This document shows positions 3,890 through 60,797 of a DNA stretch of 64,000 bases, in pieces. Below the pieces are notes generated by a model, which was not told the DNA's origin, did not search any database, and saw nothing but the letters and a program-made list of their open reading frames with translations. Position 1 is the first letter of the stretch. Every line of letters starts with the position of its first letter. Where the stretch lies: the NCBI GenBank assembly GCA_018813905.1, contig JAHJAO010000031.1, forward strand, positions 5,922 to 69,921, written 5' to 3'. A program made the position numbers and the translations under genes. Source of the stretch: Candidatus Omnitrophota bacterium (GTDB taxonomy: Bacteria > Omnitrophota > Gorgyraeia > B26-G9).

Positions 3890-4999
3890 ATGGAAGTTAT
3901 GGCGAAAATCTTTTTTTGTATTTTAGTCAGTCTTTTGATTATTCTAAATGGGCAGGATGTATTTGCCGCTAGTTGCCCATATTGCGGGCAACAGTACGGC
4001 GATCCGATGCCCGGAGATGAAGCTAGAGTTTATGCTCTTCGCGCGCAGCATGAGTCTTCATGCCCAGCCCGTTCAACAACCCCAATGTTTGACATTGACA
4101 CAGACGATGGCCTTCGGCCCGGAGGAACCTCTTTTTTTGGCCTTGGCGGGGGCGATTCATCAAGAAATGTTGATTCTAAAAAATCTAAAGAACCGCTTTT
4201 TTCAAAAGGAAGTAAAACATCGGCTCCGGTAGACCTTAGATTTCTAAACATTGAAAGCGATCCGCAGGAAATGTTAAAGGAGCAAGCTGAATTTGATAAA
4301 ATGAATGCGGCCTGGCTAGAAAGACAGAAAAAAGCAATTAGAGAAGCTAGCATAAAGAATAAGTCTTGGACTAAATCAATTATAACTTCTATAAAAACCA
4401 CGCACGTCCCCTCCCCCCTCTATCAGCCCCACGACCTGGATGGTTTACAGCCCGGTGATATTCTGCTTATTGCTCCGGAAGCAGATGACTCCATAAGTAA
4501 TACCGTTGCCTTACTTGATCATATTTATACAAGGCGCATACTGACCTCTGGTGAGAAACAAAGCTCCGTCTCCCATGCCTTAACCGTTGTTAAAACGGTA
4601 AATGGAAAACTATTGTTCCTGGATCATACTTCCGTTGTGGGCAGCCATATATTCGGGGAAAAAGAATTTTTAAAAAATTACGGACACCGGGGTATATACG
4701 TTGCTAGGCCGCAATCAAAAGTAGATGGAGAAGTGCTATGGCAAACAGCCCAAGAGGCAGCAAAAAAAACAATAAAAGATGATAAGGTGGGCTGGGACTG
4801 GACTACTTATGGTCTATTTGGCAAAGATGCGGTTTGTTCAGAGCAAGCGGCTTTAGCCGTAGTCAAAGCTACAGGAAAGCCTCTTTTTAAGAAAAAACTG
4901 ATAGATAACTTAAAACCGATAGAGGTTACTCCGGCAGATTTATATGATCCGGAATATTTCAGCAATTACTTTGTCGTTACTCCCTTAGCCCAAAAATAG
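3890..4999 (+). CDS. Secreted hypothetical protein (signal peptide); C-terminal region possibly a permuted papain-like (NlpC/P60/YiiX-like) fold
   Basis: Signal peptide MEVMAKIFFCILVSLLIILNGQDVFA. The C-terminus has His-containing segments (LLDHIY, FLDHTS) ahead of a CSEQAALA cysteine. The fold assignment is speculative. Confidence 0.55.
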   Translation: MEVMAKIFFCILVSLLIILNGQDVFAASCPYCGQQYGDPMPGDEARVYALRAQHESSCPARSTTPMFDIDTDDGLRPGGTSFFGLGGGDSSRNVDSKKSKEPLFSKGSKTSAPVDLRFLNIESDPQEMLKEQAEFDKMNAAWLERQKKAIREASIKNKSWTKSIITSIKTTHVPSPLYQPHDLDGLQPGDILLIAPEADDSISNTVALLDHIYTRRILTSGEKQSSVSHALTVVKTVNGKLLFLDHTSVVGSHIFGEKEFLKNYGHRGIYVARPQSKVDGEVLWQTAQEAAKKTIKDDKVGWDWTTYGLFGKDAVCSEQAALAVVKATGKPLFKKKLIDNLKPIEVTPADLYDPEYFSNYFVVTPLAQK

Positions 5000-54480: not shown

Positions 54481-54854
54481 ATTTTTATTAATACCAAATT
54501 ACCTGCCGGCAATATCTAAAACCTTAGTTTTTTTCTTTAGAATCAAAAGCGTAAGATATATCGCCATGCTTACAAAAAAGAAAATCAGCCAGGAGTTGCG
54601 CATAAAAAAGTGTTTCTAAGCAAAATGCCATAAGAACTAAAGGAATCAGCAGTAACGGAATGTTGCTTCTCCATTTAAAAAGCCAAGCTCCCTGTTTTTC
54701 CAAGTGTTTTCTTAATGCCATATTATTTTTAATTACTTTTTTTCTGGGGCAGCGCTTTCGTCGCAGATCTTGGCGAGACTCCGCCATAGACAACATCTTC
54801 GTGAATGCATTCGGCGCTTACTCCGTTTCGAATCCCTATTCGAAAAGATTTAAA

Positions 54855-54886
54855 TGGAGCCAAGGGGGAGGCTCGAACCCCCGGCC
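54855..54886 (-). other. tRNA 3'-end-like fragment (T-arm + acceptor), near-duplicate of the tRNA-Ala 3' end; possible att-site remnant
   Basis: The reverse complement GGCCGGGGGTTCGAGCC matches the tRNA-Ala T-arm exactly. No 5' half or anticodon arm was found upstream. Confidence 0.4.
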
Positions 54887-55036: not shown

Positions 55037-55112
55037 TGGTGGAGCCAGGGGGGCTCGAACCCCCGGCCTCCTCGTTGCGAACGAGGCGCTCTCCCAGCTG
55101 AGCTATGACCCC
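55037..55112 (-). tRNA. tRNA-Ala (anticodon CGC)
   Basis: The reverse complement GGGGTCATAGCTCAGCTGGGAGAGCG...TTCGCAA...GGTTCGAGCC...TGGCTCCACCA carries the G3:U70 Ala identity pair and an encoded CCA. Confidence 0.85.
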
Positions 55113-55475: not shown

Positions 55476-55640
55476 TTAGCTGCGCCGATGGGAAACGATT
55501 ATCGCGCCGATTATGGCGCCCAAAAGAGTGCTGATTACCGGATTGCTCGTTAACGGGCACAGGCCGGATGCGCATTTGCCGAAATAACCGATCGCAAATC
55601 CAACCGCTCCGCCGATTAATACGCCTAAGATTGTGTTCAT
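55476..55640 (-). CDS. Unlisted small (54 aa) membrane protein with CxxxC motif (MNTILGVLIGGAVGFAIGYFGKCASGLCPLTSNPVISTLLGAIIGAIIVSHRRS)
   Basis: Hand-translated from the minus strand. The protein has two Gly-zipper TM helices flanking CASGLCP. It is missed by the 60-aa ORF cutoff. The overlapping 95-aa ORF is in another frame and is RK-rich, so it is likely spurious. No strong SD. Confidence 0.45.
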   Translation of the reverse strand: MNTILGVLIGGAVGFAIGYFGKCASGLCPLTSNPVISTLLGAIIGAIIVSHRRS

Positions 55641-55655
55641 TTTTATATCGCGTGT

Positions 55656-55973
55656 CTATTTTGAAGCGGATTCGTCTTTTAACTTCTTTAGCAATAAGGG
55701 AGTGAGAATAAAGCAGTCTTTTTCTGCGTCTTTTACCAGGCGGTAAAAATCGCAATTATTTAAGCAATTCTTGAATTTTTTGGCAAATTCGCCCTGTGTT
55801 TTTCCCGCACATAAGGTGCTGGCAATAACCCAGCAGGCCCGGCCGGCGTTTGTCCCGCCATGCGTGTCATGAAGGCGTTTTTCCGTAGCCGCCGGACAAA
55901 CTCCAAATTGCTTTTCCTGTGCCCCTCCCGGCTGCCGGCCACAGTTTTTATGTTCCCAACAATTCTTTTTCAT
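55656..55973 (-). CDS. Small Cys-rich protein with two Cys-Trp motifs (two-CW-domain-like), paralog 1
   Basis: NCWEHKNCG...VCPA...RACWVI, plus 4 more Cys. Its 5' 150 nt are near-identical to the adjacent paralog. Confidence 0.65.
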   Translation of the reverse strand: MKKNCWEHKNCGRQPGGAQEKQFGVCPAATEKRLHDTHGGTNAGRACWVIASTLCAGKTQGEFAKKFKNCLNNCDFYRLVKDAEKDCFILTPLLLKKLKDESASK

Positions 55974-55988
55974 AAGTATGAGTTCTGC

Positions 55989-56312
55989 TTATTTTTTAGA
56001 TGCATCTTCTCGTATCTTTCTAAGTAATACCTGGCTTAAAATAAAATGGTTTGGTTCTTCAGTTTTTACGAGATGATAAAAATCGCACTCCAAGCATTTT
56101 TTGAACTTTTTAGCGAAGTTCTCTTGTACGCTGCCATTGCACATGGTTCCGGTTATAACCCAGCAGGCCCGGCCGGCGTTTGTCCCGCCATGCGTGTTAT
56201 GAAGGCGTTTTTCCGTAGCCGCCGGACAAACTCCAAATTGCTTTTCCTGTGCCCCTCCCGGCTGCCGGCCACAGTTTTTATGTTCCCAACAATTCTTTTT
56301 CATAATATCCAC
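55989..56312 (-). CDS. Small Cys-rich protein with two Cys-Trp motifs (two-CW-domain-like), paralog 2
   Basis: Same N-terminal 50 aa as paralog 1, with one D/N difference. The C-terminal half has diverged. Confidence 0.65.
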   Translation of the reverse strand: MDIMKKNCWEHKNCGRQPGGAQEKQFGVCPAATEKRLHNTHGGTNAGRACWVITGTMCNGSVQENFAKKFKKCLECDFYHLVKTEEPNHFILSQVLLRKIREDASKK

Positions 56313-56357
56313 TCCTTTTTTAAAAATTAACTATCCATTATCTGTAGTACTGGACGC

Positions 56358-56993
56358 TTATTTTGCGCTTTTTATATACCCTTGTACTTCCTGAAAACTG
56401 GCTGTAGGAGAACCGACCATGTTGCCCCGCCGGTCAAAGACGCGGATATTAGGGACGCTGCGGATATTGTACTGCTGGACGAGCGGAGTTTTCCAGTTAA
56501 CAATATCTATCTTTCGCAAGAATACATCCGTGTCGGAATTTGCCAACTGTTCAAGATAGGGGCTTATTCTGCGGCAGGGGCCGCACCAGTCCGCGTAGAA
56601 ATCAACAATGGTTATTTTGCCCAGGATAATTACATCCGATAAATCGATATGTCTGCCGCCCTCTTTGTAAATCTTGATGGCTTGGGTTTCGGATTTTTCT
56701 TTCTCTGTTTTAATCTTGTCCATTTTTTTTATTCTGTTGCGGCCGGACTCCAAGCGCTGTTCGAAATCTTTATCGATATCGGTTACCACGTTATCCCTTA
56801 AAATTATCATGCCGCCCGGATAGCTTAAAATTTGTTCATCACCGCTACTTACTTCTCCCGAGGGCTGGCCAAATTTCGCGACGACTTCCTCTCTGGTAGT
56901 TCCCACGCCGACTTCGGACTGTGCGCTTGCCGTTGTTAAAGCGTAAAAGAATACTGCGGTTAGTGCAAACATGGTTATCCGGAAAAAATTCAT
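56358..56993 (-). CDS. Secreted thioredoxin-domain protein
   Basis: Signal peptide MNFFRITMFALTAVFFYALTTASAQSE. Thioredoxin motif FYADWCGPCRR. Confidence 0.8.
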   Translation of the reverse strand: MNFFRITMFALTAVFFYALTTASAQSEVGVGTTREEVVAKFGQPSGEVSSGDEQILSYPGGMIILRDNVVTDIDKDFEQRLESGRNRIKKMDKIKTEKEKSETQAIKIYKEGGRHIDLSDVIILGKITIVDFYADWCGPCRRISPYLEQLANSDTDVFLRKIDIVNWKTPLVQQYNIRSVPNIRVFDRRGNMVGSPTASFQEVQGYIKSAK

Positions 56994-57060: not shown

Positions 57061-57996
57061 TCAGGTATTCCGCCGGCTGTCACGGACAAAATTACTACCC
57101 GTAACTGATTTGGCTAATTTTTTAAGTTCCGCGCCGATTTCACCGATTTCGGCCGCGTGAGAAATCGTGCGGTATTCGTTAGTGACAATACCAATAGATA
57201 CGGAAATTAGAAATATTTGGGCGATATTGCCCTGCCGGTCTTTGGCCGCAATGAAGCCACGTTCCCGGTCTTCTTTGTTATAAAATGATGGGGCTATTTT
57301 ATCAAAGTCGGAGATAATGTGTTTGCAAATCGTTTCTGACTTTTCCGGGGTAGTCAGACAAACAAAATCATCACCGCCGATATGTCCGACAAAATCGTCC
57401 TTATTACCCTTTTCCATCACCGTGCTCAGGATAATTCGCGCTGATTCGCGGATAACCTCGTCTCCGTGCTCAAAGCCGTAAGTATCGTTGTAGGACTTGA
57501 ATTTATCCAGGTCAATATAGCAAATTGCAAAGGGTTTTCCGCTTTTTATCGCGGCTTCGAATTCGCTCATTATTGTTACATTGCCGGGCAGACGGCTTAA
57601 AGGATTCGCGTCCAAATCGCGGGTGCTTCTGCGAACAATCATATTGATACGGGCGACCAATTCCTGAGGGTCAAACGGTTTGACCACATAATCGTCAGCT
57701 CCGGCGTTTATACCCATGACTTTATCCTGGGTTTCGCCTTTGCCGGTGAGCATGATAACCGGCATGTGCCGAAGCAGGATGTCTTTTTTTAGTATTTGGC
57801 ATACCTCCAACCCGTTCATGCGAGGCATTTTGTAATCTAAAATCACAATATCGGGCGAGGTTTTATGCACTTTTTCCAAGCCGTCTACGCCATCTGTGGC
57901 TTCATAGACTTCAAAACCTTCGCCTTCTAAAGTTATTTTCAAAACATCACGGATATCGGGTTCATCATCGATTATTAGAATTTTTAGTTTTCTCAT
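57061..57996 (-). CDS. Response regulator receiver domain fused to GGDEF-type domain (motif GGDDF)
   Basis: REC: ILIIDDEPDIR...VILDYKMP...VIMLTGKG. GGDEF domain: YIDLDKFKSYNDTYGFEHGDEVI...GHIGGDDFVCL. Confidence 0.8.
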   Translation of the reverse strand: MRKLKILIIDDEPDIRDVLKITLEGEGFEVYEATDGVDGLEKVHKTSPDIVILDYKMPRMNGLEVCQILKKDILLRHMPVIMLTGKGETQDKVMGINAGADDYVVKPFDPQELVARINMIVRRSTRDLDANPLSRLPGNVTIMSEFEAAIKSGKPFAICYIDLDKFKSYNDTYGFEHGDEVIRESARIILSTVMEKGNKDDFVGHIGGDDFVCLTTPEKSETICKHIISDFDKIAPSFYNKEDRERGFIAAKDRQGNIAQIFLISVSIGIVTNEYRTISHAAEIGEIGAELKKLAKSVTGSNFVRDSRRNT

Positions 57997-58025: not shown

Positions 58026-59606
58026 TTAAGCTACGGTGACGTTGGAATCTTCGATCTGCTGCGTAGACAAAGTGAAATGAAAAGCGGTGCCTTTGCCTAC
58101 TTCGCTGGTGACCCAGATTCGACCTTTATGGGCCTCGACAATTTTTTTGACCAAAGACAGGCCAAGACCGGTTCCTTTCTTTTCCACATTAATAACATTG
58201 TCGACCCGGAAGAATTCGTCAAAGATCCGGTTCACGTCTTCCGGGGTTATGCCAATACCTGTATCCGCGACTTCGATATTTATAAAATCACTGCCCGGAA
58301 TTACCTTGATGGTTATTTTGCCTTTTTCCGGAGTGAATTTTAGCGCGTTACCGATTAAATTGATGAAGACGCGTGAAATCTGGCTTGAGTCCATCCAGAC
58401 CATGACCGGTTCTTTTGGGGTATCCAGTTCCAGCTTGATTTTTCTTTCGTCCGTTTGCGGGAAAAACAAATCGGCAATACTTTCGACAATTTCCGTAAGA
58501 GATGAATGCTTAATCTTCATACCGATTTTTCCCGATTCTATGCGCGCGATATCCAACAGGTCATTGACCAATTTTATGAGTTCGTCACTGTGCACGTTAA
58601 TTTTTGTTAATTTTTCTTTTTGTACATTGGTGACATCGCCAAGTCTCCCCGCGCTCAAAATCGAAGCATACCCTTTTATTGAAGTCAGCGGTGTCCTTAA
58701 CTCGTGGGAAACGGCGGATACGAAATCGGATTTCATCTTATTGAGTTTAACCAGCTGAATATTAGCTTCCGCCAGTTCTTTAGTGCGTTCTTTAACCCGG
58801 ACTTCCAGGATATCGTGAGAGTGCTTGAGTTCTTCGTAGAGCCTGGCGTTTTCAATGGCAACGCCTAACTGATTGGAAAGGACGAATAAAGAATCAATAT
58901 CTCCCTCAGATATTGTGTTATAAGGATTGCTGTTGCCGACAAAAATATACCCCTCGACCTTTTCTTTGATGACCATGGGCACAACGACGAAGGAATTTAC
59001 GTGAAAAAGATTAAGCCATTCAACCTGTTCTTGAGTAGCGCTTTCAAAATTTTTTACCCAGATGGAACTGCCCATGTGAAAAACGGTTTTTAAAAATTCG
59101 CCGGATATTTTTTTGTTCCGGATATTTTCCAGCTCATCCGGCTTGAAACCTATCGCGGCTTTAGCGGCGGTAACGTCTTTATCCCGATCCGTTAAAACAA
59201 TCATCGCTTTTTCAAATCCGAGTTTCAAAATTAAAGGTTCGGTGATTTGGGCAAAGAGTTTCTCCGCATCCAATGTGGAGTTGATTAGCTTGCCTAATTC
59301 GTGCAAGGTATATAAACCGTTAACCTTTTTGTCCAGCTCTTCCTGCGTGCGGTTAAGTTCTAAGTCTGTCCGGATAATAATCTTGGCCTGATCGTCAAGT
59401 TCGTTATAAGCATTTCTTAATTTATCCAACGCCCGCTGCATCTTCCCAATTTGTTCGCTTTTTTCTCTTGTTAATTCGGCAAGATACGCTAGCAGTACAA
59501 GCAGGATAAAACCGCCCATTAACTTGGCGACCATATTGTCGACAATGACCACCACGCTTAAGACCACGGCTCCGATTATTAATATTAACCAGATATTGAT
59601 TTTCAT
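58026..59606 (-). CDS. Sensor histidine kinase with GAF domain (2 N-terminal TM helices, coiled-coil, GAF, HisKA, HATPase_c)
   Basis: H-box SHELRTPLTSIKGY. N box IGNALKFT. G boxes DTGIGI and GTGLGLS. Confidence 0.85.
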   Translation of the reverse strand: MKINIWLILIIGAVVLSVVVIVDNMVAKLMGGFILLVLLAYLAELTREKSEQIGKMQRALDKLRNAYNELDDQAKIIIRTDLELNRTQEELDKKVNGLYTLHELGKLINSTLDAEKLFAQITEPLILKLGFEKAMIVLTDRDKDVTAAKAAIGFKPDELENIRNKKISGEFLKTVFHMGSSIWVKNFESATQEQVEWLNLFHVNSFVVVPMVIKEKVEGYIFVGNSNPYNTISEGDIDSLFVLSNQLGVAIENARLYEELKHSHDILEVRVKERTKELAEANIQLVKLNKMKSDFVSAVSHELRTPLTSIKGYASILSAGRLGDVTNVQKEKLTKINVHSDELIKLVNDLLDIARIESGKIGMKIKHSSLTEIVESIADLFFPQTDERKIKLELDTPKEPVMVWMDSSQISRVFINLIGNALKFTPEKGKITIKVIPGSDFINIEVADTGIGITPEDVNRIFDEFFRVDNVINVEKKGTGLGLSLVKKIVEAHKGRIWVTSEVGKGTAFHFTLSTQQIEDSNVTVA

Positions 59607-60797
59607 CTATTCTCCCAAGGCGCAAACGACAATGGTTTCGTTATGGAAAAAAGTCTGTCCTAAATGCACCGCTGCGCCCAGTGGCGCCTGTTCGCCGTAT
59701 GTGTAAAACCCGATAATCGGCGTGTTTTCGCCAAAGATACTTTTAACGATTTCTATTTCCCGGTATGCGGCCCGGCCAAATAATCTTTGCCTGGCTACGG
59801 AGTCAAAAATAAAAACGAGTTTTGGCTTAGCTCGGTAAAGCCCTTCCCGCGCCATTTCGGCCGCTTTCTTTGCGGCTTTCAGAGCGGTCTCTTTAGAGCC
59901 CATCATCACATGAATTTCAGAACCCTTTGGAATTTCTCCGGCGCAGATCAAGGCTCCTTCATTATCCACGCGCAATGCGTTTCTAATGATACATTCTTCC
60001 TCTTCGGGGATAGACATGCCCAAAGGATACATGATCGACATCCGGGCCATTGGTTCATGCTGTAAATCGCTTACCCGTTTGCCGAAATAGTCTTCGTAGA
60101 TGCGTACTGCCGGTTTACCGTCAAGCTTTTTTAAGATGTTGTGCTCAACGTCGGTAACGATCCGCGGTTTGCCTAAAGGGTACCAGCCGTGCCGGGCACC
60201 GATGCCTACGCTTATATCGCCTGAGATTAAAATCCCGGGTACAGTATCCTCGTAAATTTCATTATTAAAGAACTGATAAGTTTTTTGAAAAAGAAAATCA
60301 TCTGCTGCTGAGCCGCCGACGATGGGAAAGCTTGTCCCCAAAATCTCCTGAATCCCGCGGATTATTTCTACCACGTTGCCTTTTAAGCCGTCGGGAAACA
60401 TCATGAAGGCGTGCCGGATAGACGACGATCTGGTTTTGGCAACTGTGTCTTTAGCGATAAACTGTCCCGCTTGCCGCGGCAACGCGCTAATGTTTTTGCC
60501 TAGAGATAACCCGATCTGCAAAGAATTGGATTTTAAAACTAAAATCGTAACCGATTTTTTATCCGGCCCCGCGCTTGTGATCTCTCCAGCTGTTGTGCAG
60601 CCGACTATTGGGGCGGTCGGGACGGTGCTTTTTATGCCGCGGATAAGTTCTTTATGGTCAAACCGCGCCGATGCAAAACAAAAAACTATATCCGGGTCTT
60701 GTTTGCCCATCTTTTCCAGCGCCGCATGTGCCGCCAAAGCCCCGGCGCCGAATGAATCAATTTCCTTACTTGTTCCTACCCCGACAAAGAGTGCCAT
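59607..60797 (-). CDS. FIST domain sensory protein
   Basis: FIST_N/FIST_C-like architecture: ...DIVFCFASARFD...IVGCTTAGEI... with C-terminal GFYTYGEQAP. The gene abuts the kinase gene. Confidence 0.7.
   Translation of the reverse strand: MALFVGVGTSKEIDSFGAGALAAHAALEKMGKQDPDIVFCFASARFDHKELIRGIKSTVPTAPIVGCTTAGEITSAGPDKKSVTILVLKSNSLQIGLSLGKNISALPRQAGQFIAKDTVAKTRSSSIRHAFMMFPDGLKGNVVEIIRGIQEILGTSFPIVGGSAADDFLFQKTYQFFNNEIYEDTVPGILISGDISVGIGARHGWYPLGKPRIVTDVEHNILKKLDGKPAVRIYEDYFGKRVSDLQHEPMARMSIMYPLGMSIPEEEECIIRNALRVDNEGALICAGEIPKGSEIHVMMGSKETALKAAKKAAEMAREGLYRAKPKLVFIFDSVARQRLFGRAAYREIEIVKSIFGENTPIIGFYTYGEQAPLGAAVHLGQTFFHNETIVVCALGE

Follow-up and report, generated by a model that had tools for sequence, protein, structure and literature searches.

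Two tandem two-CW domain genes of an Omnitrophota genome share 5' ends that are very probably kept alike by recurrent gene conversion

Two tandem two-CW genes beside a set of signalling genes

The DNA analyzed here is a stretch of 64,000 nt from Omnitrophota (referred to as the window) in which two short, related genes follow each other on the minus strand. Read in the direction of these genes, the same-strand order is FIST sensor, GAF histidine kinase, response regulator with GGDEF domain, thioredoxin-fold protein, gene B, gene A, DUF6132 protein, a 74-aa ORF, and tRNA-Ala. The protein-coding features with a domain assignment are the following:

59607-60797, minus strand: FIST sensor, upstream signalling gene (Pfam)
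58026-59606, minus strand: GAF histidine kinase, upstream signalling gene (Pfam)
57061-57996, minus strand: response regulator with GGDEF domain, upstream signalling gene (Pfam)
56358-56993, minus strand: thioredoxin-fold protein of 211 aa (length from the source record), upstream neighbor (PF00085, 7.5e-16)
55989-56303, minus strand: gene B, two-CW domain protein of 104 aa (same length in the source record), upstream gene of the pair (NF045718, 106.4 bits)
55656-55973, minus strand: gene A, two-CW domain protein of 105 aa (NF045718, 100.9 bits)
55476-55640, minus strand: DUF6132 small glycine-zipper membrane protein, downstream neighbor starting 15 nt after gene A (PF19628, 9.5e-13)

The spacers between B, A, and the DUF6132 gene are 15 nt each. 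Gene B has an AGGAG Shine-Dalgarno sequence at 56312-56316, 8 nt before its ATG, and gene A starts 15 nt past the stop codon of B without an obvious Shine-Dalgarno sequence of its own.

Both genes belong to the NCBIfam family NF045718, named "two-CW domain", which they match over model positions 1-79 of 80 with scores about 3 times the curated cutoff of 35 bits. They share both CW dipeptides (C5-W6 and C47-W48) and the conserved cysteine set of the family, though this full-model membership names A and B without explaining them. A profile search retrieved 1,816 clusters at 50% identity, mostly from Nitrospirota/Thermodesulfovibrionia, and genomes carry several paralogs that are not linked to each other. 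Stand-alone proteins of about 100-130 aa make up most of the family, while other members are fused to PAS/GAF histidine kinases, GGDEF domains, a NIT-MCP chemoreceptor, Ser/Thr kinase-PP2C proteins, adenylate/guanylate cyclases, receiver domains, or USP, and some proteins carry two two-CW domains. The only recurrent neighbor is a sigma-54-dependent response regulator (36 of 106 loci). Tandem pairs are rare and were found at 4 of 80 genome loci, in Nitrospirota; no second two-CW copy was found for the P0004 contigs that end just past a two-CW gene.

Across 40 homologs, C5, C11, C26, C47, C70, and C74 show no variation and C55 almost none, giving seven conserved cysteines to which a nearly invariant His38 is added, and 15 of the 20 invariant columns lie within residues 1-50. 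In an AlphaFold model (mean pLDDT 89.6), the N-terminal half is made of short helices and loops and the C-terminal half of three helices. This model found no fold match and the sequence no relative in the PDB, Pfam holds no model for the domain, and nothing relevant was found in the literature under the name "two-CW". The domain may be a metal- or redox-binding signalling module.

A 151-nt block of near-identity with sharp edges

A base-by-base comparison at an offset of 330 nt showed that plus-strand positions 55825-55975 and 56155-56305 agree over 151 nt except for a single base, C at 55868 and T at 56198, and that the nearest mismatches outside this block are at 55824 and 55976. The original prediction had described near-identical 5' ends with one C/T difference, and both the block and its only mismatch are real; its interval for gene A (55826-55975) is correct, and that for gene B (56154-56303) is displaced by 2 nt and should read 56156-56305. 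The block extends from 2 nt upstream of each ATG through codon 50 minus its last base, so that the two genes are exactly identical over nucleotides -1 to 105 and 107 to 149. On the minus strand, the mismatch makes codon 36 GAC (Asp36) in gene A and AAC (Asn36) in gene B, and this is the single amino-acid difference within residues 1-50, just as had been predicted. Codon 50 at the block edge differs synonymously (ATT versus ATA). The parts of the two genes can be listed as follows, with orthologs given in L002 (GCA_043826625.1), an Omnitrophota metagenome-assembled genome (MAG) with 95.6-98.9% identity to the window in this region:

56155-56305, minus strand: homogenized block, gene B copy (offset-330 comparison, alignments, exact runs)
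55825-55975, minus strand: homogenized block, gene A copy (offset-330 comparison, alignments, exact runs)
55868, no strand assigned: single mismatch in the block, plus-strand C here and T at 56198 (Asp36 in A, Asn36 in B)
55989-56154, minus strand: diverged 3' part of B, orthologous to L002 5821-5985 (94.7% identity)
55656-55824, minus strand: diverged 3' part of A, orthologous to L002 6151-6315 (95.3% identity)

Beyond the block, nucleotide identity between A and B drops to 62% (93/150) and protein identity to 27/55 or about 49%, slightly under the 55% claimed earlier, and the 3' part of B is only 62-64% identical to the A copy of either the window or L002. The longest run common to the 3' parts of A and B is 11 nt. 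Divergence is thus sharply bounded as had been proposed and not spread evenly along the genes. This boundary does not delimit a CW-motif half as the original prediction had assumed, since it lies 2 codons past the second CW and inside the NF045718 domain (residues 3-82). No third copy or donor of the block was found in the window by tblastn and blastn.

Paralogs resemble each other more than orthologs inside the block

L002 carries the same two-CW gene pair in a syntenic position and with the same spacing. Over codons 1-50, the two paralogs agree at 148/150 positions in the window and 149/150 in L002 (98.7-99.3%), whereas all four combinations between the genomes give only 88.7-89.3% identity. 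From codon 56 to the end, this relationship is inverted, with 94.7% (B) and 95.3% (A) identity between orthologs versus 62-65% between paralogs. In a four-sequence alignment of the window and L002 pairs, the 15 informative sites of nt 1-150 all group the sequences by genome, and the 11 informative sites in the 25 nt upstream and the 47 downstream of the block all group them by ortholog. The sites therefore form three uninterrupted runs (11 by ortholog, 15 by genome, 47 by ortholog) with 58/58 sites outside nt 1-150 grouping by ortholog and 0 conflicting sites, and the edges of the tract are sharp. Paralogs closer than orthologs within one segment, flanks that retain the ortholog tree with discrete breakpoints, and identity that reaches synonymous sites without being explained by constraint characterize concerted evolution by interlocus gene conversion, and the two-CW pairs show all three. 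The original explanation of the sharp boundary by gene conversion of the N-terminal part agrees well with this distribution. A and B themselves appear to be old paralogs, judged by 3' parts that are 62-65% identical and each have a clear ortholog in L002.

Between the genomes, 14-16 codons of the block differ, 10-12 of them synonymously and with changes in both copies, while past codon 55 gene B differs by one amino-acid change and gene A by two plus a one-codon indel. We polarized the derived changes by hand from codon lists, using the B gene of a more distant relative (L003_B; see below) as outgroup. Derived changes of the block were assigned to the window lineage at, for example, codons 7, 10, 11, and 18 and to the L002 lineage at codons 4, 14, 15, 24, 25, 28, 29, and 33. 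These changes are found in both copies of each lineage, and the alignments thus place conversion in both lineages after the split of the window and L002.

Within one genome, a single recent partial duplication or replacement would look the same as recurrent conversion, and the original prediction had named partial duplication as one possible origin. We consider such a single event very unlikely, because it fails to explain why each genome has its own homogenized version with derived changes in both lineages. The comparison with L002 contradicts it, as each lineage must have seen one or more events of its own since the split. The architecture is also older than this split, given the equal spacing and the orthologous 3' halves, and a precise swap of one paralog's 5' end for that of the other would be gene conversion anyway.

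Alternatively, two 5' ends that were similar without being identical could have been collapsed by the assembler or made alike by consensus polishing. All sequences used here are short-read metagenome assemblies and the genomes are MAGs, so that bubble-popping could have erased a few true differences between copies, and the contig L005 (99.6% identical to the window) breaks off after 48 nt of the second copy, as would be expected if the repeat caused the break. However, both copies are traversed in two independent assemblies from different projects, and the sequence that the copies share is not the same in these two assemblies; the gene B copy including Asn36 recurs in the independent L005 assembly. 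The window moreover retains the SNP between its copies, and grafting the 5' end of B onto A would need junctions supported by reads. An artefact of this kind therefore seems extremely improbable. The block is nonetheless a plausible assembly hazard, since a 151-nt repeat can break or collapse short-read assemblies.

Between the two genomes, divergence is somewhat higher in the block (about 11%) than in the 3' parts (about 5%). This difference is not expected under unbiased conversion, yet it is inside the local variation, with 10.3% divergence for the DUF6132 gene and 5.8% for the thioredoxin gene. GC-biased conversion was considered and rejected, as about 4 AT-to-GC and about 7 GC-to-AT derived changes (polarized by hand with L003_B) reveal no bias. 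As a separate observation, the region 55476-56993 comprising the thioredoxin, two-CW, and DUF6132 genes is 89-94% identical to L002, versus 96-99% for the flanking signalling and housekeeping genes.

No sign of RNA-level constraint or programmed diversification

Near-identity of two direct repeats could alternatively reflect constraint at the nucleotide level, such as a structured or antisense RNA, or programmed diversification by a diversity-generating retroelement (DGR) or a phase- or antigenic-variation cassette. The two copies are indeed direct repeats, and their sole mismatch, A versus G at an AAC codon, superficially resembles DGR activity. Against nucleotide-level constraint, the block varies freely between the genomes (11%, mostly at synonymous sites), its RNA fold has a z-score of -0.51, and an Rfam search of the window returned two tRNAs only, so that a structured RNA was rejected. 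Against a DGR, each genome has a single mismatch, with opposite A/G polarity in the window and L002, and a search for reverse-transcriptase domains among the annotated neighbors and in ten scanned ORFs of 324-449 aa, which are part of the window ORFs of such size, found none.

Cassette-type phase or antigenic variation was rejected as well. Only two copies exist, no inverted repeats as for a recombinase-type switch were found, and the supposedly variable 3' halves are 94.7-95.3% identical between the genomes. Expectations that the C-terminal halves are free to diverge and that the genes form a cassette-like arrangement therefore did not hold, because these halves behave as stable orthologous lineages and are accompanied by no silent cassettes, no recombinase, and, among the annotated neighbors and the ten scanned ORFs, no reverse transcriptase. 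The comparison with related genomes that had been recommended yielded the same paralog number in L002, a pair, and low rather than high C-terminal diversity. In Neisseria pilE/pilS and Borrelia vlsE, an expressed copy is diversified from many silent cassettes by segmental conversion. The two-CW genes resemble these systems in that part of a gene moves between paralogous copies; unlike them, conversion homogenizes, there are only two copies which both look expressed, and the non-converted parts are conserved. Taken together, we regard the whole group of RNA- and diversification-based explanations as next to negligible.

A more distant relative suggests B-to-A conversion

Further close relatives are scarce: a metagenome scan found nothing above 60% amino-acid identity, and a protein search found only three lineages above 70% identity. 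The third lineage in our comparison, L003, is a contig of 2191 nt from Logan SRR22388082 with 85% identity to the window that contains gene B followed by codons 1-50 of another two-CW gene. This pair is unhomogenized, with 72% identity in the 5' block, and its longest identical run is a stretch of 22 nt coding for NAGRACW. Given the divergence seen in the L003 pair, 150 nt would contain no more than 1 mismatch with a probability of 1.6e-20, and given that of the 3' halves of A and B themselves, with a probability of 7e-30, so that the near-identity of the block is far above chance.

The blocks of the window and L002 are 87-89% identical to L003_B and only 71-73% to L003_A, showing that the block is of B type and that the 5' end of A was overwritten by that of B. 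The 3' end of the tract differs by lineage, with exact runs in L002 from -1 to 50 and from 52 to 164, that is, about 15 nt further 3' than in the window. Codons 51-55 of both L002 copies are a mosaic of A-type (GCC, TTA) and B-type (ATA, GGA) codons, which suggests, from few sites, several conversion events in both directions. Three lineages were compared, and gene A of L003 is represented by codons 1-50 only, so that the count, the rate, and the direction of conversion events are all read from small numbers of sites.

None of the four tandem pairs from other loci is homogenized either, and a family-wide 5' homogenization was rejected on these 4 pairs in 80 genome loci. Conversion thus appears to be lineage-specific and not a constraint of the whole family.

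The L003 contig itself has its final base at the equivalent of window position 55825, exactly the 3' edge of the block, despite the 72% identity of its own copies there. A mixture of strains, or a branching of k-mers behind the 22-nt stretch coding for NAGRACW, could account for this stop.

A self-reinforcing conversion tract

Based on these comparisons, the first 150-165 nt of A and B are very probably kept near-identical within each genome by recurrent gene conversion between old tandem paralogs. Mechanistically, non-reciprocal conversion by homologous recombination, either intrachromosomal or between sister chromatids, would lead to concerted evolution of the two copies. The 5' edge of the tract would be set where paralogy ends, because A is preceded by the 3' end of B. 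The 3' edge would fall just beyond the most conserved coding stretch, NAGRACW, past which no common run exceeds 11 nt. Such runs are probably too short for RecA-type pairing, so that the system would reinforce itself: identity permits conversion, and conversion maintains identity.

Much less likely, 330 nt might also be reversibly deleted or amplified between the 151-nt direct repeats, which would shift the dosage of A relative to B.

Neutral by-product or selection for identical N-terminal halves

We find it most likely that the homogenization would be a neutral by-product of conversion, tolerated because the N-terminal half is the invariant core of the family (15 of 20 invariant columns and 4 of 6 invariant cysteines). 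Any paralog-specific function would then reside in the C-terminal helices.

Conversion could instead be the means by which selection keeps the N-terminal halves identical, for example if A and B formed a heteromer with a symmetric metal or redox site in common. Paired action is hinted at by proteins that carry two two-CW domains in a single chain (P0121, P0122, and P0124). In addition, B, A, and the DUF6132 gene are spaced by just 15 nt, and most invariant residues lie in the N-terminal half. However, L003 and the four Nitrospirota tandem pairs manage without identical N-terminal halves, the two units of the fused two-domain proteins have diverged from each other, and the identity of A and B reaches synonymous sites, which selection at the protein level does not need. 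Selection of this type therefore seems unlikely to us. More doubtful still is its elaborated version, in which the two-CW domain would be a metal- or redox-sensing signalling fold and A and B a heteromer whose cofactor-binding N-terminal halves are held identical by selection through conversion, with the C-terminal helices routing the signal to different partners.

Relation to known cases of concerted evolution

Gene conversion is known to cause concerted evolution of duplicated genes in bacteria, for example of tufA/tufB, among the cases catalogued in PMC6053082. As in cases of the tufA/tufB type described there, the two-CW paralogs are closer within a genome than orthologs between genomes, and their conversion appears recurrent and dependent on homology. 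Unlike in those cases, conversion is confined to the initial 150-165 nt of a 315-nt gene and acts between neighboring direct repeats at a distance of 330 nt instead of distant loci. It is also shallow, being seen in two close genomes and absent from a relative that is about 85% identical.

The same catalogue describes tandem mtrA-1 and mtrA-2 genes of methanogens that are highly similar though one copy has otherwise diverged by gene fusion and domain shuffling, which was attributed to conversion and not to independent tandem duplication (PMC6053082, citing Wang et al. 2015). As far as this description goes, A and B are likewise tandem duplicates with retained similarity despite divergence elsewhere, but they belong to another protein family and time scale and involve no gene fusion or domain shuffling.

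A and B are therefore a new instance of a well-known process and reveal no new mechanism; they are a clean but ordinary case of concerted evolution, and the uncharacterized protein family is the more open question. Their value lies in showing, very cleanly and in nature, a conversion tract that is short, has sharp bounds, and lies within a small gene of an uncultivated phylum. Since the 5' and 3' halves carry different histories, phylogenies and ortholog calls of A and B will be misled. The pair also flags a widespread, unstudied cysteine-rich domain tied to signal transduction (about 1,800 clusters at 50% identity) that may merit biochemistry.

Other observations in the window

Elsewhere in the window, a 369-aa ORF on the plus strand (3890-4999) has no Pfam match at E <= 1e-5. 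Downstream of the two-CW genes, the tRNA-Ala(CGC) gene at 55037-55112 is followed about 180 nt further on by a 21-nt copy of its 3' arm at 54866-54886, which is identical to window positions 55048-55068 within the tRNA gene at 20/21 bases. This copy sits in about 110 nt that are absent from L002 and is followed by a further indel of about 190 nt (54500-54690, minus strand). The partial tRNA copy and the indels may be the remnant of an integration or excision event at the tRNA.
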